The notes beneath the pieces were generated by a model. That model saw only the letters and a program-made list of their open reading frames with translations. It had not been told where the DNA came from and did no database searches. The translations under genes were made by a program, and so were the position numbers. A stretch of DNA of 36,789 nt from positions 1 to 36,789 of the forward strand of contig JBFRWN010000019.1 of NCBI GenBank assembly GCA_051439605.1, read 5' to 3'. Every line of letters starts with the position of its first letter. Within the stretch, counting starts at the first letter, position 1. The DNA comes from Synechococcus sp. GTDB taxonomy: Bacteria; Cyanobacteriota; Cyanobacteriia; Thermostichales; PCC-7336. This document shows, piece by piece, positions 2,741 through 36,576 of this stretch.

Positions 2741-4033
2741 TTAGTTTAACTGAGAGGCTGACAGTATAAAGCTGATCAGGAATCCAGCAATGGTGGCCAG
2801 CGAAACCACTCCTCCCCCCAATTCGAAGGCTTCGGGCATCATCGTACTGGCTAACATTGCCAACACCGCTCCTCCGGATACCGACTGAATCACGGCTCCA
2901 GTTGCGGGAGAAATGGCATTCACTAGCAGGCTTCCCCCCAGTGCACATGCGCCCACTAAAATGACTTGGCTACTCCAGAGACCTAAAATTTTACGGATGC
3001 TGTAACCTGCCTGTCGCATGCCAATTGAGCTGGTTAACGATTCAGGCAGGTTAGAGATAAACACCGCAAGCAAAAACGCAGTGCCTGTGGAAGGGGTATG
3101 AGTGGCCATCCCTAACACGATCGCCTCCGGAATATTGTCGAGCATTGTGCCCACAAAAATGGCCAGCGGAGCACTGCTGGTAGCCAAAGACCTTGCCATC
3201 TGTTGTTCTTCGGCGGGGGACAAATCCAATTCGATACTGTCGATCGCTTGTTGACGCCACGCGGCTAGATTCGCTTCAGCCCGCACCCTAGAGGTGTTGG
3301 TGGTTTGCAGCCGCCGAGCGAGCACCCGGCTGAGGGAACTTGCCAGATGGGGGGAACGGGCAATCAACTTGTCGAAGTGAGGACGGTCTAGCCGGAAAAT
3401 GTTCATGCCGCTCTTGGCCACAACGGTGGCGGAGCGGGGTTCTCCTGTCAGCAAAGCCATCTCCCCAAACACTTCACCCGCATCCAGATTCGCGATCGTC
3501 GTATTGTCAACTTCTACAGTGGCTTCACCGCTGGCAATCATCCCCAGCCAATCCCCCATATCTCCCTGTTCAAACAGAACTTGACCGGCGGGGACGGAGA
3601 CCTCTTGCACCATGCCCACGATCGCCTGGGCTTCTTCAGGGGGAATCTCCTGCAATACACGGATGTGGGAAAGGGCGCTAAGGACAGTTTCGGCTTCCTC
3701 TTGGCGACGATGAAAAAGAAAGCGGCGACGATTGGCGGGGTGGCGCAGAAATCCGCCCAAGCGGTCAACGTACTGAGTCGCTAAAGTGAAACAGCCTCCC
3801 CCCAAACAAAAGCCAATGGCAATGGGCAAAACCCCGTTGGCCTCAAAGACGGGGAGAGCGATTTCAAATGCGATTGCCGAAATTAAAGTGCCGCTGCCAA
3901 ATGCCATGACGGCTGCGGACAGAGCACGGCGAGGTCGCCAAACTAAACCCAACAGCGATCCTAGCAGCAGGCTCGACGCGGCAAGTAGACCCTGAAAAAG
4001 GGCACTAAGGGGCATGCAATCTCGGTGGGGCAT
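2741..4033 (-). CDS. ZIP (Zrt/Irt-like, GufA-type) transporter with internal cyclic-nucleotide-binding domain
   Basis: Three N-terminal TMs (AFGSGTLISAIAFE), then a CNBD (GQVLFEQGD..D...I.SG; GEVFGEMALLTGEPRSATVVA), then five TMs with ZIP-like LDNIPEA / ISNLPES motifs and C-terminal GGAVLAMLASTMMPEAF. Confidence 0.85.
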   Translation of the reverse strand: MPHRDCMPLSALFQGLLAASSLLLGSLLGLVWRPRRALSAAVMAFGSGTLISAIAFEIALPVFEANGVLPIAIGFCLGGGCFTLATQYVDRLGGFLRHPANRRRFLFHRRQEEAETVLSALSHIRVLQEIPPEEAQAIVGMVQEVSVPAGQVLFEQGDMGDWLGMIASGEATVEVDNTTIANLDAGEVFGEMALLTGEPRSATVVAKSGMNIFRLDRPHFDKLIARSPHLASSLSRVLARRLQTTNTSRVRAEANLAAWRQQAIDSIELDLSPAEEQQMARSLATSSAPLAIFVGTMLDNIPEAIVLGMATHTPSTGTAFLLAVFISNLPESLTSSIGMRQAGYSIRKILGLWSSQVILVGACALGGSLLVNAISPATGAVIQSVSGGAVLAMLASTMMPEAFELGGGVVSLATIAGFLISFILSASQLN

Positions 4034-4204
4034 CGACGGGTTGATTGTATCGTCCCAAGTGGCGCGTAGAGCACTGAGGGCAATCGTGTTTGATGTCTCC
4101 GTAAGATTGGAGACGCATCAAGAAGAGACTATGTAGCGGAGACGATCTCAATGGTGGGTTCTCTCGATATGCTGTAACCGTTCGCCACCCCCCCAAAAAA
4201 ATCT

Positions 4205-11248: not shown

Positions 11249-12271
11249 ATGAAATTCTACGTGCTTGAGGCATTTGGGCTACTGCTGAAAACCATGCCCT
11301 TTATCCTGATTCGGTTGGGAACCTATGCCCTGCTGGGGTTAGGGCTGGCCATCTATTTCGCGATCGCAGGTGGAATTGCCTGGTTATTGGGGCAATTGCT
11401 GGGTCCTTTGGGGGTGATTGTGTTTCTAATTGCGGTTGCGGGTGCTTGGGGCATTGTGCAGTGGGCCACAAAATACTTTTTTTACTTGCTCAAAGCAGCC
11501 CATACAGCTGTGATGACCGAAATTATTGTCACGGGGCAGCTGCCGCCAGGGTCGCAGGTGGCCTACGGCAAACAGCAGGTGACCGAGCGATTCCGCGATA
11601 CCAGCATCATGTTTGCCGTCGACCAGTTGGTGGATGGAATTGTGCGTAGCTTTAATAACAAGTTCGCGCGTGTGGCAGATTTGTTGCCCATACCCGGCCT
11701 GGATAGCCTAGTGTCGGTGGTGCAAACAGTGGTGAAATTCGCCACGACCTTTGTGGATGAAGCAATTCTCAGTCGGGCTTATCGACAACGGGAGCACAAT
11801 GTGTGGGCGGTGGCGCGGGATGGGGTGATTTTGTACGCCCAAGCTTGGAAAACAGTCTTGGCCAATGCTGTTGCTCTTTCGTTGCTAAGCATTGTCGAAA
11901 TTTTGGTGGTTTTAGTGGTGCTGGGTTTGCCGGCGATTGCTTTAGGGTGGCTGGCTCCGGGGTTGAAAACCTCGTTGGGAATTTTGGTGTTACTGGCTGC
12001 TTGGATGTTCAAATTGGCCGTTACCGATGCCCACGCAATGGCCGCCACATTGCTGGCTTATCACCGCAGCACCGAAGGTTTAGAACCCGACCCTGAATGG
12101 CAGGAACGGTTGTCTGCTGTGAGTGACAAGTTTAGAGAACTGATGAAAAAGGCTGCTGAGGCGGTTGGAGAAATGAAAGGTCGGTTATCTTCAGTGACTG
12201 ACAACATGTCCGGTCAACCAGATGCTCCCCAGGGTAAAGGAGACCAATCGGAATTGGAACCGAATGGATAA
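11249..12271 (+). CDS. Hypothetical multi-pass membrane protein
   Basis: 340-aa ORF with two TM clusters (about aa 15-80 and 200-265) flanking an amphipathic region; followed by a terminator. Confidence 0.75.
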   Translation: MKFYVLEAFGLLLKTMPFILIRLGTYALLGLGLAIYFAIAGGIAWLLGQLLGPLGVIVFLIAVAGAWGIVQWATKYFFYLLKAAHTAVMTEIIVTGQLPPGSQVAYGKQQVTERFRDTSIMFAVDQLVDGIVRSFNNKFARVADLLPIPGLDSLVSVVQTVVKFATTFVDEAILSRAYRQREHNVWAVARDGVILYAQAWKTVLANAVALSLLSIVEILVVLVVLGLPAIALGWLAPGLKTSLGILVLLAAWMFKLAVTDAHAMAATLLAYHRSTEGLEPDPEWQERLSAVSDKFRELMKKAAEAVGEMKGRLSSVTDNMSGQPDAPQGKGDQSELEPNG

Positions 12272-26093: not shown

Positions 26094-26576
26094 ATGACAC
26101 AGTCGAGCTCTCCTACATGCGCCCCCTGTATTGTTAGTTCCGGGATCGTGGTTAATCGCTGCGATATTCATCGACTGCTATGCGATTTGGGCCAGGTGAG
26201 ATATTTCGATGTTGTTGATGATGCTGTGGTCACCAGCGGCACAGGTTACATCATGGAGGTGTTCTCCGACTCCCAATGCGCCACGGTGGCGATTGGCCGC
26301 ACCCTCTATATCAATGTCTGCAGTTTTGACTATCTCCAACTCAGTACAGATTTAGAGCAGCAGGTAACCTTCGACCTCGTGCAAGAGTCTCGTACCCTTC
26401 GCCTGATGCCCATTAGCTCGTCCATTGATGGCGACCTCCTGAGTAATCACGACGCCCATGCCCTTGAAGAAGCGGTTGCCGAAGTATTAGCCGCTAGTTT
26501 TGATGCCCATGCCGACAACTGCAATGACTGGCGAGAGTTTGACAAGAAAGATAGGGGTAGTGAGGGACGACAGTAG
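26094..26576 (+). CDS. Conserved cyanobacterial hypothetical protein
   Basis: APCI...GI.VN..D..RLL.DLG.V.Y...G.G...EVF......T......LY.NV.SFDYL.L...FDL.QE...LRL.P pattern recalled from cyanobacterial hypotheticals; acidic tail. Confidence 0.75.
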   Translation: MTQSSSPTCAPCIVSSGIVVNRCDIHRLLCDLGQVRYFDVVDDAVVTSGTGYIMEVFSDSQCATVAIGRTLYINVCSFDYLQLSTDLEQQVTFDLVQESRTLRLMPISSSIDGDLLSNHDAHALEEAVAEVLAASFDAHADNCNDWREFDKKDRGSEGRQ

Positions 26577-29292: not shown

Positions 29293-30237
29293 TTATGGTG
29301 TTGGGTAATTGGCGAGGAAATCTGTGTAGGCTTGCTGAATGCCCTCCCTCAATGGCGTGGTAGCTTGCCAGCCGAGACCGGTCAAGCGGGATACGTCCAT
29401 GAGTTTGCGAGGGGTGCCATCCGGTTTGCTGGCGTCGAATTTTAGCGTTCCGGTAAAGCCCACCACATTGGCAACTGTCTCTGCCAGCTCGCGAATGCTG
29501 ATGTCTTCTCCAACGCCGATGTTGATGAAGGTTCCGATATCTTTTGCAGAATGATGTTCCATTAAATACACGCAGGCATCCGCTAAATCATCGCTATACA
29601 AAAACTCTCGTCTGGGATTTCCCGTGCCCCACACGTTCACTGTGGGGGCTTTAGTTTCTTTAGCTTCGTGCATCTTGCGGATGAGTGCGGGCAATACGTG
29701 CGATCTTTCGGGATCGTAGTTATCACCCGGCCCATAAAGGTTGGTGGGCATGACGCTGATATAGTCGGTGCCGTATTGCCGGTTGTAGGCATTGCACATC
29801 TCGATACCGGCAATTTTGGCGATCGCGTAGGGTTGGTTAGTGGGTTCCAATTCTCCCGTTAGCAAATACTCTTCTTTTAAAGGCTGGGGGGCAAATTTGG
29901 GATAGATGCAACTGGAACCCAGAAAGAGGAGCTTTTTCAGGCCGGTCAAACATGCAGAGTGGATGACGTGGGTTTCGATCGCCAGATTTTCGTAAATAAA
30001 TTCTGCTGGATAGGTATTGTTGGCGTAGATTCCACCAACTTTGGCAGCAGCTAACATGACGCAATTGGGCCGCTCTGACTCGAAGAATTTGCGGACTGCC
30101 ATGGCATCCAACAAATCTAGCTGGGATCGGGTGCGGGTGAGAATGTGTTCGTAGCCCCCGGCTTGTAGGCGACGAACTAGTGCCGAACCCACTAGACCGC
30201 GATGTCCGGCGACAAAAACTGTATCCCGTTTATCCAT
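29293..30237 (-). CDS. fcl: GDP-L-fucose synthase
   Basis: [57 protein letters not shown]. Confidence 0.96.
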
Positions 30238-30260
30238 GATGTGGGTTGCCTGGATACCAA

Positions 30261-31349
30261 TTATTCGTGATAGTCATGGGTAATAAAGCCACGATCTTTA
30301 AGGAGGCGATCGCGCTTGGCAGCAACAAGATCCTCCCTGACCATTTCTGCCACTAATTCCTCCAAGGTGGTGCTTGGAGTCCAGCCCAGTTTCACGCGGG
30401 CTTTGCTGGGATCGCCGATTAAAGACTCTACCTCAGTTGGACGATAGTAGTGGGGATCCACCTCTACAATGCATTTTCCGTCCTGGCCGTATCCTTTTTC
30501 TTCAGGGCCGCTCCCCTTCCAGGTCACAGTTATTCCAACTTCTTTGCAGGCGGTTTCAATAAACTCTCGAACGCTGTATTGTATCCCCGTAGCAATCACG
30601 TAATCCTCCGGTGTGTCCTGTTGCAGCATCCTCCACTGCATTTCGACGTAATCGCGGGCATGTCCCCAATCTCGTTTGGCATCCAGATTGCCAATGTAGA
30701 GTCGGTCTTGCAAACCCAACTTGATGCGGGCGATAGCTCGGGTGATCTTCCGAGTCACAAAGGTTTCGCCTCGGAGAGGAGATTCGTGGTTGAACAGGAT
30801 TCCGTTGCAAGCATACATGCCGTAGGCTTCTCGGTAGTTCACTACGATCCAGTAGGCATACAATTTGGCAACGGCGTAAGGCGATCGGGGGTAAAAGGGT
30901 GTGGTTTCTGTTTGCGGTATCTCTTGAACTAAGCCGTATAGTTCGGAAGTAGATGCTTGGTAGAAGCGGGTCTTATGCTCCATTCCCAATATGCGTATGG
31001 CGTCCAGCAGGCGTAACGTACCCAGGCCATCGGTATTGGCGGTGTACTCGGGGGTTTCAAAGGAAACAGCAACGTGGCTTTGGGCACCTAGATTATAAAT
31101 TTCATCCGGCTGTACATCCTGGACAATACGGATCAGGTTTGTGGAATCGGTGAGATCGCCATAGTGCAGTAAAAATCGACGGTTTTCTACATGGGGATCT
31201 TGATACAGATGATCGATGCGTGAGGTATTGAATAAAGACGAACGTCTTTTTATGCCATGAACTTCATAGCCCTTTTCAAGCAACAGTTCAGACAGGTAGG
31301 CACCATCTTGGCCAGTGACACCCGAAATCAGTGCAACTTTTCGGTTCAT
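30261..31349 (-). CDS. gmd: GDP-mannose 4,6-dehydratase
   Basis: [48 protein letters not shown]. Confidence 0.97.
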
Positions 31350-31924
31350 CAAGTTATAACCTTTCCTCGACTGTAGTGAAAATATTCAGCAACGATTTCA
31401 AGAGAACAGCGAGCCGCATAAAAGCGGATGGAAATGAGTAGGTCGAAACGAATGCCGCAGTATGTAGGGGGTAAAGTTGGCTAATAGTGCCAGAAACAGA
31501 CAAGTCTCGCAATCCTACAGGGTTTGTTATTACAACATATCTGAAACCTCAGATTAGCTTCAACACTCGCATGCATAACAGTTTCGAGACTGTAGACAGG
31601 AACTTGAAAGACAAAGTAGCGGGATATGATAGAAAACTGCAATGAAAGATAAAAGCAGTTTAGGCCATACAAAGTGAGAGCGCAAATAAAGAGTTGAATA
31701 CAGTAAAAAATACTAAATCGATGAATGCGATCGAGCGCAATGAGAATAACTAACGCCCAGCCCGATCGGCAGATGTCTATTTGCACCTAAGTAAGCTTTT
31801 CACAAAGATCTTGAGAAATCTCAATATCTAGAGGCTATTCGACCGGAAATACCCGAAGCAAGTCTGATAGGATGTTAGGAAATATTCTTAGAGTAGCCAT
31901 GCCATTGTAATGCTTCAGAAAATT

Positions 31925-33412
31925 CTAAAGGACGAGTAAATCATCTACAAGATTAAGCCCCTGGGGAATCAACTTTCCGCCCAAAGCTGAATCCTTAATC
32001 CAGCCATCGATAATTACTGGTTGGCGATCGCCTGAGTTGTTTCCTTCTGCAGAGCAATGTACGCCATACTCAGAACAATCGCGTATGTAGGTTCTTGTCA
32101 AAATAATGTCACTGAGAATATCAAGTCTTTGTAACCTAACCCCTGATTTCCGACAGTTCATAATAGAAGCACAATTGATGAATATAGAGTTAACAGAGCC
32201 AGTATGGGGCTCGATATTGATGCCATGATTTGCCACTCCAAAGATTCTTGGACTATCTATAACAATACCAGAGCAATCATTCAGATAAATCCCATCATAT
32301 CCGCTGACATTATTATTTTGCTTAGTAATAGTAGCTCCTATGATTTGTGCATCTCGTACTTCTTCTAGTCTAATTCCATCTTCGTTAGTACCGGGTTTAG
32401 AACGTGATGCGCTATCGACAATCATCGGTGAGATTAAGGAAAGTCCAGTAACTGTATTTCCTGTACCAGGATGAGCTTTAAATCCACATTGGCCTGATTT
32501 ACGAATAATAGGCCCGACAAAGGAGATATGCTCGCTTTGAAACGTGTCAGGGCCACCAATACGAATCCCATGTTCTCCAGAATCTTCAATAATAACTCCA
32601 TTGAAGATTGCATTTTTAACAGAACTCAAAAGAATTCCATTGTGGCCTGGCTTATGTTCTGAATTAGGGGAGAGACCGGTGCAGGTCAATGCATTTACTG
32701 TGAAATTCTCAACATTACGAAGAAAAAGTCCTCGACTGTAAGACTCGATTCTGATTTTATCAATTGTGAGATTTTTGCAATTAAAGGCAACAACTGCTTT
32801 ATCACAGCCACGACATATAATCTGCCCCACCTTTATATTATCACCTCGCAATTGAATCATTCCATCAAGAATATCGTTTCCTCTTGCAACTTGAACTGTG
32901 CTGGACACTGATAATTGAGCAACTTGACATCTTTCGCTCAAAACAATACATCTCTGAAGCATAGAGGATTTGGAGATCTCTAAACACAAAGTATCTGCGA
33001 CAACTTGCTTTTCTAATTTCAAGACTGCTGCATTTCCTCGGACTGCTCTGTCTGTTAGAAGTTTTAGCTGGCCAATAATTCGAGTTCGTTCGGGAACAAC
33101 GAGGCGTGAAACGAGATAGACATTTGAAGGGTTAGGAAAAAATATTGAGCCGCCTCTCGCATCATTGAACAGCTGTTGCAAAGCATCAGTATCGTCATTG
33201 ATGCCATCACCTTTGAGATTAAAGGAATCCGGTACCAAAAAGCTTTTAATTGAATCTTTTTGAAGATTATGATTGCTTGATAGAAATTCGGTGCTCTCTG
33301 TTTGTGTAGAATTTATTTCTGCTTGTCTAGAGCAACTTAAACCGAACAAGCTTGATGTGCCTGCAGCTGCTGCAGCAATTGCAGATTTACTTACAAAACT
33401 ACGCCTTTCCAT
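31925..33412 (-). CDS. Tat-signal right-handed parallel beta-helix protein (pectate-lyase-3/tailspike-like glycan-processing enzyme); ATG 33412 preferred
   Basis: MERRSFVSK twin-arginine motif after an AAGGAG RBS; cap motif KGDGINDDTDALQ; repeated beta-helix rungs (GHNGILL, GEHGIRI, NEDGIRL, GYDGIYL, ANHGINI). Confidence 0.75.
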   Translation of the reverse strand: MERRSFVSKSAIAAAAAGTSSLFGLSCSRQAEINSTQTESTEFLSSNHNLQKDSIKSFLVPDSFNLKGDGINDDTDALQQLFNDARGGSIFFPNPSNVYLVSRLVVPERTRIIGQLKLLTDRAVRGNAAVLKLEKQVVADTLCLEISKSSMLQRCIVLSERCQVAQLSVSSTVQVARGNDILDGMIQLRGDNIKVGQIICRGCDKAVVAFNCKNLTIDKIRIESYSRGLFLRNVENFTVNALTCTGLSPNSEHKPGHNGILLSSVKNAIFNGVIIEDSGEHGIRIGGPDTFQSEHISFVGPIIRKSGQCGFKAHPGTGNTVTGLSLISPMIVDSASRSKPGTNEDGIRLEEVRDAQIIGATITKQNNNVSGYDGIYLNDCSGIVIDSPRIFGVANHGINIEPHTGSVNSIFINCASIMNCRKSGVRLQRLDILSDIILTRTYIRDCSEYGVHCSAEGNNSGDRQPVIIDGWIKDSALGGKLIPQGLNLVDDLLVL

Positions 33413-33820
33413 AAGTGAGTATCTCCTTAGTAAGAATTTAGGTTGAAAATTCGGGAACGAAAGAAGGCCTGGGTTGCTGAGGATGGGCATCAGCCATCAA
33501 TGGCTGCTAAAAAGGTTAGGTTAATGTACGTCCATGCTGCCAGTAGAATGGATTATCGCTGAGCAATGCCGTCGTTTGCTCAAACCGCTGCATTATGCGT
33601 GAGCCACTAGTGACTTTACGTTATGTCTCGGCTAAGTGCAGGAAAACTCGGCCAAATTGTCATCCGGTGAAATCTCCGGATAGCCAAGAAAATACCACCA
33701 TAGCTTTGACTTTTTCATTAAGGAATGCAATAACTAAATCGACGTATGTCCCCGGCTTTGCGAGGTGTATGCCTCTTTTTTGTAGGATAAGTTGAGTGAG
33801 CCGCATGCTCTTAATGTCAA

Positions 33821-34591
33821 CTAACTCGGCATTACAAAGGTCTTGTAAGAAAGCTGCGCTAACTTTATATTTCTGGGGGATCTATTTCTTGCCCATAGAT
33901 TCTTTGTAGGTTTACTTATTGCAGGGAAACCTTTTGCAGAAGACATCCTTGGCACTTCACTGGTAACTAAGGCACCATAGCCTATAACACTGCAGGCGCC
34001 AATCTTAGGACACATGAAAATCTTTGCTTTCTGTCCAACCCAAACATGGGGCTCAATATGCAAGGATTTACGTCGGGTAGCGATCTCGTTTGTTTCGGTA
34101 TTGATGAAGACATGTCCAGAGTGAGTCCTTATCTCAACACCTGAGGCAAACATACAATCATCGCCAAGCAAAATGCCAGAATGGGAAACGTTGATTTTAA
34201 TATCATTTGAAGAAATACCTTTACCAATAATTACATCGCAATTATCTCTAACCTCAACTAAACCTGAAAACTTACACCACTTCGTGTTGCCACAAAGAAA
34301 AACATTGCTATTACTTCCAAGAAATTTAATTTTAAGATTGCTATTATAATTTCCAGAGATAAATATTTTATTATTTCGGCAAGAAGCAGAATTCTTGTGC
34401 TTAATGGTTGGAAGTTTTAGGGATGAAGATCTTGAACTTTTTATATATACATCAAAAGAATCATTTGAAAACTTATTTTTACTCGTTAAGGAAAATATAC
34501 CTTCATCTCGATGAATCACGGATAGTGAAGCATTAATATCAGGGATACTAAAAGATCTGCCGAAAATTTTTATCGCTTCATCGAAAGTCAT
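33821..34591 (-). CDS. Hexapeptide-repeat (LbH) O-acetyltransferase, polysaccharide-modifying type
   Basis: LGDDCMFASGVEIRTHSGH and HIEPHVWVGQ...IGACSVIGYGALVT motifs; AT-rich codons. Confidence 0.75.
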   Translation of the reverse strand: MTFDEAIKIFGRSFSIPDINASLSVIHRDEGIFSLTSKNKFSNDSFDVYIKSSRSSSLKLPTIKHKNSASCRNNKIFISGNYNSNLKIKFLGSNSNVFLCGNTKWCKFSGLVEVRDNCDVIIGKGISSNDIKINVSHSGILLGDDCMFASGVEIRTHSGHVFINTETNEIATRRKSLHIEPHVWVGQKAKIFMCPKIGACSVIGYGALVTSEVPRMSSAKGFPAISKPTKNLWARNRSPRNIKLAQLSYKTFVMPS

Positions 34592-35090: not shown

Positions 35091-36576
35091 CAATGGCACT
35101 GAAATAAAGGCATAGAGAAAGGCTCAACGGCCGGATGTGAAAGGATCGCAGCCAGAAGAGCCCCAAACGAATTGTCCCCACTATGCCGAATCGAGCCGAG
35201 ATCCTCAAGCAGAAATTGCTCAACAGTATGGGCCTACCCTGGCAGGAGTTGTTACCCGCCTCAGCGATCGAGAAAGTGCTGGCAGACGAACAGGTGAGCT
35301 ATCGGCAACGTGTCTACACCCCAGTCGTGACCTTGTGGATGTTTCTGTCTCAAGTGCTAGATGCAGACAAGAGTTTGCAAAATGCAGTCAATCGAGCGAG
35401 CGCTTGGTTGACGGTGGCAGGAGGAGCAGTTCCTTCATCAGATACAGGAGCCTACAGCAAAGCACGCAAACGCCTGCCAGAGGGAGTGGTCAAGCGACTG
35501 TTGCAGCAAACCGCAGAGGGGATTGAGGCCAAAGTCGAACACGAGCAATTGTGGTGTGGTCGTCCCGTCAAAGTCTGCGATGGCACCTCAGTCCTGATGA
35601 GCGACACCAACGCCAACCAGCAGGTGTATCCCCAACACAGCAACCAAGCAGCGGGCTGTGGATTTCCCATTGCCCAACTGGTAGTGATGTTCTCCCTGAC
35701 CACAGGAGCCGTCTTGGATGCGATGCTGGCTACCTTCTCCACTAGCGAGTTAACGCTGGCCCGTCAGCTTTACCAACAGCTCCATGCACAGGATGTGGTG
35801 CTAGCCGATTCGGCCTTCGGCACCTATGCGGATCTGGCTTTGGTGCAAGCCGCCGGAGCGGATGGAGTCTTTCGCAAGCAGCACGCTCGCAAGACCGATT
35901 TCCGCACAGGCAAAAAGCTCGGCATCGGCGACCACATTGTCACCTGGTTTCGACCCGCCAAGTCGGCCTCAGCCTTAGCAGAGCAAGACTTTGCTCGTCT
36001 GCCAGCAACCTTGCTCGTGAGAGAGGTTCACTTGCTCCTCTATCGCAAGGGCTTTCGGCCCAAAGAGATTATCCTAGTCACCACTCTGCTCGACCCCCAA
36101 CAATATTCCAAGCAGAAGCTAGCCGACCTGTATGACCGGCGCTGGCAAGCTGCTGAGGTTAATCTCAAACATCTCAAAACCACTTTGAATATGGAGATGC
36201 TCACCGCTCAAACGCCCCAGATGGTGCGCAAAGCAATCTGGGTGCACATGATGGCCTACAACTTACTACGCACCTTGATGTGGCAAGCCCGCCCAACAGT
36301 TGCTGACGGGAAAACTCCGCAGCTATCGCTGCAAGGCACTCGTCAAGTTTTCAACCAGTTCGTCCCGCTGTTGGCAACTGCCAGCCAACAGTCGCATCGC
36401 TCTCTCGACCGCCAACTGTTGGTGCTAGTTGCACAACAATTACTTCCCTTGCGTCCGGGTCGGATTGAACCGAGGGTTCGAAAAAGGAGACCCAAGCCCT
36501 TTCCCTTGATGAAGCACCCAAGACCTATTCTCAAGCGTAAGCTAACTGCGTAGTTCGGCTTATTTCAGTGCCATTG
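35091..36576 (+). mobile_element. IS4-family insertion sequence, 1486 bp, structurally complete
   Basis: Perfect 17-bp terminal inverted repeats CAATGGCACTGAAATAA (35091-35107 and 36560-36576) enclosing one transposase ORF; no flanking direct repeat. Confidence 0.93.
35183..36553 (+). CDS. IS4-family DDE transposase
   Basis: DDE residues in VCDGTS, LADSAFG and the YREK-like YDRRWQAAEVNLKHLK; C-terminal RPGR.EPRV.KRRPK. Confidence 0.92.
   Translation: MPNRAEILKQKLLNSMGLPWQELLPASAIEKVLADEQVSYRQRVYTPVVTLWMFLSQVLDADKSLQNAVNRASAWLTVAGGAVPSSDTGAYSKARKRLPEGVVKRLLQQTAEGIEAKVEHEQLWCGRPVKVCDGTSVLMSDTNANQQVYPQHSNQAAGCGFPIAQLVVMFSLTTGAVLDAMLATFSTSELTLARQLYQQLHAQDVVLADSAFGTYADLALVQAAGADGVFRKQHARKTDFRTGKKLGIGDHIVTWFRPAKSASALAEQDFARLPATLLVREVHLLLYRKGFRPKEIILVTTLLDPQQYSKQKLADLYDRRWQAAEVNLKHLKTTLNMEMLTAQTPQMVRKAIWVHMMAYNLLRTLMWQARPTVADGKTPQLSLQGTRQVFNQFVPLLATASQQSHRSLDRQLLVLVAQQLLPLRPGRIEPRVRKRRPKPFPLMKHPRPILKRKLTA

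Follow-up and report, generated by a model that had tools for sequence, protein, structure and literature searches.

In a 36,789-nt stretch of Synechococcus sp. DNA (contig JBFRWN010000019.1; this whole stretch is referred to as the window), we found that the open reading frame (ORF) at 2741..4033 on the minus strand encodes a 430-amino-acid ZIP-fold membrane protein, as judged from structure prediction, with a cyclic-nucleotide-binding domain (CNBD) inserted between its third and fourth transmembrane helices (TM3 and TM4). By model and by analogy, and at about even confidence, we predict that this protein is an elevator-type importer of divalent metal ions modulated by a cyclic nucleotide monophosphate (cNMP). 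cAMP likely switches metal uptake by the protein, and we lean slightly towards activation over inhibition because of the analogy with CNBD-gated channels and with the exchanger SLC9C1. An earlier note on this DNA had read the ORF as ZIP TM1-3, CNBD and ZIP TM4-8 in one frame, which our analysis confirms; its interpretation as a whole is partly supported. In the open literature, from which subscription journals are mostly missing, we found no characterised ZIP regulated by a cNMP, as the note had supposed, and no description of the ZIP-CNBD architecture, which is visible in automatic annotations. No such transporter is named in the available portions of a 2012 survey on zinc genes in marine cyanobacteria or of a 2020 review on Synechocystis.

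The nucleotide-binding domain and the predicted ZIP fold

All protein features lie on the minus strand. The CNBD occupies residues 111-243 (3305..3703), close to the 3300-3680 proposed earlier, and is made up of N-terminal helices, a beta-roll (residues 143-216), a hinge and a C-helix (residues 228-243, 3305..3352). By alignment, the phosphate-binding cassette at residues 189-203 (3425..3469) includes G190, E191, R200 and S201, and the C-helix includes a conserved R241; the two peptides quoted in the earlier note are both present, one as the cassette and the other inside the C-helix. Pfam PF00027 matches residues 145-226 (E 1.3e-18). Model residues ~100-245 align to the CNBDs of HCN, MloK1, SthK and PKA (Z 16-18, up to 18.1), and Foldseek and structural alignment match the domain to those of PKA-R, MloK1, HCN, SthK and CRP.

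We followed conservation of the cassette in an alignment of 120 close homologues (A1) and in one of 62 diverse homologues with 34% mean column identity (A2). The G190/E191/R200 triad is invariant in A1 (120/120), and in A2 the three residues are present in 62, 55 and 52 of 62 rows; retention at this level, given the mean column identity of A2, points to selection for cNMP binding. Among 231 single-CNBD proteins (near-duplicates included), 215 have the complete triad, in agreement with the intact cassette that had been claimed, and R241 is kept in 120/120 rows of A1 and 51/62 of A2. In forms with tandem CNBDs, the triad is kept in 1/34 at each domain, and the cassette Arg is mostly replaced by His (18/34 and 29/34). 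In known CNBDs the cassette Glu and Arg hold the ribose and the cyclic phosphate, and their absence explains why the domain of CNNM4 does not bind cNMP (PMC6940986). Four class III cyclase frames are encoded in the source genome, which also yields 14 matches to the CNBD. At G000:C117:11850-15192, two CNBD genes adjoin a class III nucleotide cyclase, possibly forming a dedicated cNMP module.

Pfam sees the cNMP-binding domain alone in the protein, with no match to Zip (PF02535), so the ZIP assignment needed testing. Pfam, NCBIfam and PDB sequence searches failed to reveal the ZIP part (no ZIP came up when the C-terminal half was compared with the PDB), and the Foldseek list for the model was filled up by CNBD matches; homologue scans and structural alignment alone revealed it. 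Pfam Zip matches 49/62 diverse homologues at E<=0.01. Of the split Zip domain with a nested cNMP-binding domain that the earlier note proposed to look for, PF00027 is matched in the protein itself and PF02535 in most of the diverse homologues, not in the protein. An AlphaFold model built from 120 sequences (mean pLDDT 78, pTM 0.57) aligns best to eight entries of BbZIP, the ZIP of Bordetella bronchiseptica (Z 18.6-21.0). The best match, 7z6m, covers 203 residues spanning model positions 6-401 (Z 21.0, rmsd 2.3 A), so that the comparison with BbZIP proposed in the note came out in favour of a ZIP. The membrane segments are thus predicted to form an eight-TM, 3+2+3 ZIP/SLC39 fold.

Eight hydropathy peaks are found in the protein, three before the CNBD and five after it. 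Lys and Arg residues sit in loops 1-2, 3-4 and 5-6, with none in loops 2-3, 4-5 and 6-7, and this positive-inside distribution places the CNBD and the TM3-TM4 loop in the cytoplasm, where the earlier note had put them as a regulatory loop. TM1-TM3 (residues 7-91, 3761..4015) were delimited from model helices, hydropathy and alignment columns; in TM2, L50, E57 and P61 are spaced as M99, S106 and P110 of BbZIP (numbering from PMC5573306 and PMC10372143). TM6-TM8 span residues 346-426 (2756..2998), and a conserved P400-E401-A402 is placed after TM7. The true start is probably M7 at 4015, giving a protein of 424 amino acids, because this is the length of the database gene call and of the two closest relatives.

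The predicted metal site and the proposed coupling of the CNBD to an elevator

TM4 (3104..3172) carries D299-N300-x-P302-E303 and TM5 (3011..3088) carries S327-N328-x-P330-E331; the kinked-helix Pro-Glu metal motifs of ZIPs are present as P302-E303 and P330-E331, together with D299 and N328. The corresponding motifs of BbZIP are 177-HNhPEG and 207-QD/NhPEG, and M99 and a TM6 glutamate complete its site (PMC5573306). We compared the sites by alignment to nine HNxPEG ZIPs, on which the equivalences rest, and not by residue-level alignment to BbZIP. D299 is Asp in 101/101 family rows, whereas the canonical residue is His in 9/9 HNxPEG rows. The first motif position of TM5 is mostly Ser or Ala in the family where canonical ZIPs have His or Gln. 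The TM6 position of the M2 glutamate is V360 here and mostly Ser or Thr in relatives, as compared to Glu in 9/9 canonical rows. The Met of the canonical site is Leu in the ZIP-CNBD family, and the entrance position is Glu or Asp. The family retains the two motif glutamates, the two prolines and the Asn of TM5, with D299, E303 and E331 kept in 63, 57 and 62 of 63 single-CNBD rows and in 22/22 CNBD-less rows. The GufA/ZupT signature, HNxPEG in TM4 with (H/Q)(N/D)xPEG in TM5, is absent from the ZIP-CNBD protein; by alignment to the canonical rows, so is the TM6 glutamate of a BbZIP-type binuclear centre, and the loop contains no DxxxPHxH exit-site sensor motif.

The protein would therefore hold one metal site, made up of D299, E303, N328 and E331 (with S327), with E57 at the entrance. 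We infer that this oxygen-lined site favours Mn2+ or Fe2+ over Zn2+, because it is without histidine. In ZIP8, His as compared to Gln or Glu at the entrance and M1 site shifts the preference between Zn and Mn/Fe/Cd (PMC10372143). Zinc, which the test plan of the earlier note assumed as substrate, is not the obvious choice for a histidine-free site (D-N/G-x-P-E in TM4, S-N-x-P-E in TM5 and no M2 glutamate), and complementation of znuABC/zupT mutants alone may consequently miss the activity.

We consider it improbable that the protein nonetheless imports zinc in the ordinary way under cAMP control, which the note's test plan took for granted. In favour of it, no second ZIP-like gene was found in the source genome (99.98% complete), and CNBD-less relatives are automatically named 'ZIP family zinc transporter'; however, the site has no His and no Zur-like box was found. 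The divergent upstream region shared with a phosphoglucomutase/phosphomannomutase gene (4016..4204, 189 nt) contains no Zur-, CRP- or sigma70-like site by motif search, and its best match to a Zur consensus has 6 mismatches at 12 specified positions. With this consensus, a Zur-like box within 1 mismatch occurs in 0/50 homologue upstream regions, equal to shuffles, and Zur-, CRP- and NtcA-like patterns in these 50 regions are no commoner than in shuffles. In contrast, two of the 25 sites that the same pattern has in the source genome lie within 180 nt upstream of ZnuA-family genes. A Zur-controlled zinc importer as first choice was rejected on both counts, the missing box and the histidine-free site. 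The lack of a Zur box reported in the earlier note thus holds; as a sign of post-translational control it is weak support, because a non-zinc substrate explains the absence equally well. Clusters of Zur/Fur-like palindromes, probably metal-uptake loci, are found on contigs C41, C59, C71 and C93 of the source genome (G000).

A cNMP-gated transporter could move Mg2+ or Ca2+, act in efflux or in delivery to the thylakoid lumen, or respond to cGMP, and we regard these variants together as unlikely. An oxygen-only site suits hard cations, and the residue after the cassette Arg (S201), at which Ser can accept either purine, is Ser in 164/231 and Thr in 31/231 single-CNBD proteins. However, the ZIPs characterised to date carry d-block ions inwards, to the cytoplasm (PMC9873690), and the positive-inside topology matches that of an ordinary ZIP.

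Coupling of the domain to import is suggested by where it is inserted. In BbZIP, the TM3-TM4 loop, L(3,4), folds back, blocks release and the elevator switch, and controls transport (PMC10256678); in ZIPs, TM3 belongs to the static scaffold and TM4 to the moving transport domain (PMC9873690, PMC9278863). In the model, TM3 is followed by a Gly-Gly break, a basic helix then leads into the CNBD, and the chain leaves the CNBD via the C-helix, a helix containing W259 and a helix continuous with TM4. The basic linker after TM3 (residues 92-110, 3704..3760) was recognised by alignment conservation of G93-G94-F95-x-R97, with R97 conserved in 62/63 single-CNBD, 16/16 tandem and 22/22 CNBD-less rows. 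In the linker on the other side (residues 244-287, 3173..3304), DSSP assigns a helix at 249-265, which holds W259, and one at 273-310, modelled as unbroken into TM4, at low model confidence (pLDDT ~50); W259 is near-invariant (120/120 close and 61/62 diverse homologues). The CNBD would straddle the scaffold and transport halves of the protein. Nucleotide binding would close the C-helix (228-243), and the closing C-helix would pull the W259 helix and the helix running into TM4, shifting the elevator. The metal sensor built into BbZIP would in this way be replaced by a second-messenger input, and uptake would be tied to the cAMP state, not to the metal level.

Family history, Slr0593 and gene neighbourhood

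When we scored 8000 candidates, 533 homologues were found at E<=0.001, and a chance fusion or mis-assembly was rejected given hundreds of full-length homologues. Of 270 proteins collected, 178 are ordered ZIP-N, CNBD, ZIP-C, and 57 of these 178 are further 50%-identity cluster representatives, indicating a diverse family; 36 show two stretches of CNBD, 33 of them as genuine tandem proteins (520-630 amino acids) and 3 because the profile split a single domain, and 5 are without a CNBD. Among the best 80 of 556 confirmed genome loci, 45 are of cyanobacterial type and 35 are other, the latter including Bacteroidota, Ignavibacteria, Myxococcota, Gemmatimonadota, Competibacteraceae, Elusimicrobiota, Latescibacterota and Spirochaetales. 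A C-terminal query matches 28/401 genomes of the source phylum (Cyanobacteriota): 11 over the full query length in frames of 428-459 amino acids (source genome included), 3 in frames of 611-622 amino acids, and the remainder short or partial. The phyletic survey that the earlier note called for thus shows the architecture to span cyanobacteria (11/401 genomes at full length), Bacteroidota, Ignavibacteria, Myxococcota and others. An atlas search returned only clusters without names, carrying the same domains.

CNBD-less members of the subfamily carry DGxPES in 87/93 and SNxPEG in 87/93 and have a basic loop with a median of 19 amino acids; a large group of this kind is formed by proteins P0293-P0400. 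The usual His-rich TM3-TM4 loop to which the earlier note appealed does not apply here, the loop of these relatives being ~19 residues long and basic. They are likely the parent group of the ZIP-CNBD family, and for the histidine-free D/S-site subfamily as a whole we found no characterised member. Four CNBD-less relatives (P0228, P0235, P0236 and P0261) are nested among CNBD-bearing ones and have longer loops of 44-120 residues with 3-14 His, which suggests that a metal-sensing loop replaced the nucleotide sensor. Because of these nested relatives, the TM3-TM4 loop behaves as if it were a swappable sensor slot.

A branch of ~610 amino acids (P0142, P0143, P0146 and others; alignment A3) has two CNBD-fold domains in the TM3-TM4 loop. 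In its members, among them G335:C51, G185:C208 and G068:C22, the cassette Glu is lost and the Arg is mostly His, and the ligand is likely another one or a metal. Genome G068 has single and tandem ZIP-CNBD forms together. P0128 represents a separate tandem duplication in which both domains retain the Gly-Glu...Arg cassette.

To order these forms, we used a tree of 110 rows built from membrane columns only, in which the CNBD-less rows were drawn from the 120 best matches of one query and the outgroup is one group of nine similar sequences. The root of the quick tree is unreliable, as one tree built under a constraint scored better by 24.8 log units. The data reject one clade for every CNBD-bearing row (p-AU 0.0001) but do not reject a clade of CNBD-bearing rows plus the four long-loop CNBD-less rows (p-AU 0.81), which scores above the free tree. 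Given limited sampling and a long outgroup branch, the simplest reading would be one CNBD insertion into a short-loop ancestor of D/S type, followed by duplication and several losses.

A close relative from a laboratory cyanobacterium is Slr0593 of Synechocystis sp. PCC 6803 (P74736, BAA18856.1, samp), with 46% identity over the full length (E 6e-125). Slr0593 shares the domain order, the cassette and the D/S metal site, and it has a 13-residue gap at the stretch of the W259 linker helix in the pairwise alignment. The two proteins fall in one 8-row clade (SH-aLRT 99) and form an orthologous group by full-length similarity, same architecture and single copy. Family member P0401 is identical to BAA18856.1, annotated as 'cAMP protein kinase regulatory chain', and we tied this accession to locus tag slr0593 because name and length (434 amino acids) match. 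A PKA regulatory subunit or protein kinase label was rejected, as there is no kinase family match and a single CNBD lies within membrane helices; the 'protein kinase' labels of homologues are mis-transfers, because no kinase, DNA-binding or pore domain is present. Slr0593, also known as 'SyPK', was reportedly shown to bind cAMP by Yoshimura et al. in 2000. Slr0593 is listed as a 434-amino-acid 'cAMP binding membrane protein' of unknown function category (PMC7133116, PMC9880817) and has been detected by mass spectrometry (PMC9880817). We found no paper in the open literature calling it a transporter, so the novelty of the earlier note's proposal stands for the transporter reading, as far as found, and not for cAMP binding by this membrane protein, which has long been listed. 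In one table searched, slr0593 has no sense transcription unit, and its sole mention is as antisense partner to the recA unit, whose 3' UTR measures 564 nt (PMC4195498). The mRNA of slr0593 falls in the early phase of iron starvation (log2 -1.3 at both 3 h and 12 h), and an antisense RNA drops together with it (PMC3516471). The reported antisense RNA may be read-through from the recA 3' UTR.

Several of these findings weigh against cNMP-modulated import. The fall of slr0593 mRNA in iron starvation argues against an iron-scavenging role. AlphaFold leaves the pose of the CNBD relative to the membrane part unfixed (pTM 0.57, linker pLDDT ~50). CNBD-less subfamily members of ~250 amino acids are abundant, which indicates that the CNBD is dispensable. 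M99, H177, Q207, the TM6 glutamate and the exit site of BbZIP are without counterpart, and with these ligands and the exit site absent, transport may be weak or of another ion. The CNBD-like domain of the metal transporter CNNM4 binds no cNMP (PMC6940986). Among genes flanking the family, we scanned the two nearest ORFs per side with Pfam wherever a full-length gene call existed (95 proteins from loci outside the cyanobacteria and 89 cluster representatives of 166 from cyanobacterial loci), and found no phosphate-uptake, cyclase or recurring metal-homeostasis gene, except for one CDF exporter cluster (2 loci) and two single potassium-channel genes.

Some of these points would fit a working ZIP whose domain binds cNMP without gating flux and serves dimerisation, stability, localisation or partner binding, like the CNNM CNBH domain; we think this rather unlikely. 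The CNNM4 precedent and the unfixed pose of the domains favour it, as do repeated loss of the CNBD within the family and the large CNBD-less sister group. However, the binding triad and R241 are strongly conserved, linker residues are conserved on both sides of the CNBD, and the domain is inserted precisely into the loop by which BbZIP is locked. We see only a small chance that the protein is a sensor or transceptor, in which the altered ZIP site would bind an ion, or move little of it, and the protein would give out a conformational signal on the cytoplasmic side that integrates ion and cNMP. Such a role would accord with the loss of several canonical ligands and the exit site, with the lack of a metal regulon signature in upstream motifs and neighbours, with the five ZnuA-family matches already present in the source genome, and with the low expression suggested by the missing slr0593 sense transcription unit in the one table. 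In contrast, the same D/S site occurs in CNBD-less relatives that have no signalling domain, and no output domain or conserved partner gene was found. Taken together, we continue to favour cNMP-modulated import.

Recurring neighbours among 650 ORFs (80 loci and the first 9 kb of the window) are confined to related genera, and in the window a UbiA-type prenyltransferase downstream and the divergent phosphoglucomutase look incidental. At L038:6416-7384 and one related locus, a CDF cation-efflux gene is convergent with the ZIP-CNBD gene. Elsewhere in the window, four ORFs are Pfam-negative: 11249-12271 (+, 340 amino acids), 26094-26576 (+, 160 amino acids), 31481-31786 (-, 101 amino acids) and 33821-34591 (-, 256 amino acids). 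The regions 29293-33490 (-) and 35183-36553 (+) hold genes of GDP-fucose-type synthesis and a beta-helix (pectate-lyase-like) protein, then an IS4-family transposase.

Comparison with known systems

Known control of ZIPs acts through the metal itself, by Zur, His-rich loops or endocytosis. If our prediction is true, a cNMP domain in the regulatory loop puts metal uptake under a global second messenger and provides a compact model for allosteric control of an elevator transporter. The prediction also offers Slr0593, so far an unexplained membrane protein listed as binding cAMP in the main model strain of cyanobacteria, a function open to experiment; according to the 2020 review, Synechocystis may have further systems of low affinity for taking up Mn2+. 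A large ZIP subfamily is set apart by the histidine-free D/S site. The boldest form of the proposal, which we hold as tentative and on balance doubtful, is that the family provides the first ZIP gated by a second messenger, an importer of Mn2+/Fe2+ with a single site free of histidine, in which cAMP directly unlocks the elevator via the domain placed between the scaffold and transport helices. Slr0593 would then supply metal to the photosynthetic apparatus in response to light and carbon, and the TM3-TM4 loop would be an exchangeable sensor slot, filled by a short basic loop, a loop rich in His, a single cAMP domain or a pair of His-substituted domains for another ligand.

In comparison with BbZIP (PDB 7z6m, 5tsa, 8ght), a transporter of GufA/ZupT type, the protein has the same eight-helix fold (Z 21.0), shares the kink prolines and glutamates of TM4 and TM5, and has the cytoplasmic TM3-TM4 loop as its presumed regulatory site. 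It differs in that His177, Gln207, Met99 and the TM6 glutamate are replaced, the DxxxPHxH zinc sensor is missing and a 190-residue CNBD insert takes the place of a 20-residue loop; identity is 18-20%, and a long tree branch leads to the HNxPEG-type ZIPs. The CNBD-less DGxPES/SNxPEG ZIPs have the same histidine-free site and the basic motif after TM3, but differ in their short loop without a sensor domain.

MloK1, SthK, HCN/CNG, PKA/PKG and CRP have the same CNBD fold and cassette, with 25-33% identity to the MloK1 and SthK domains. Unlike the domain described here, their CNBDs are C-terminal domains of tetrameric channels or belong to soluble regulators. The CNNM2-4 magnesium transporters are metal transporters, as is predicted for this protein, with a cytosolic domain of CNBD fold (CNBH); the CNNM domain lacks the cassette Glu and Arg, whereas both are kept in the ORF 2741..4033 protein, and the tandem-domain relatives resemble CNNM more than single-CNBD proteins do. 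In the sperm Na+/H+ exchanger SLC9C1, a secondary transporter, cAMP modulates activity by way of a CNBD (PMC10620091, PMC6052114). SLC9C1 differs in fold and cargo, and its CNBD is C-terminal and cytosolic, accompanied by a voltage sensor, instead of lying between the scaffold and the transport helices. ZIPs as such, CNBDs as such and a secondary transporter under cAMP modulation are already known, but for a ZIP combined with a CNBD we found no description in the open literature.

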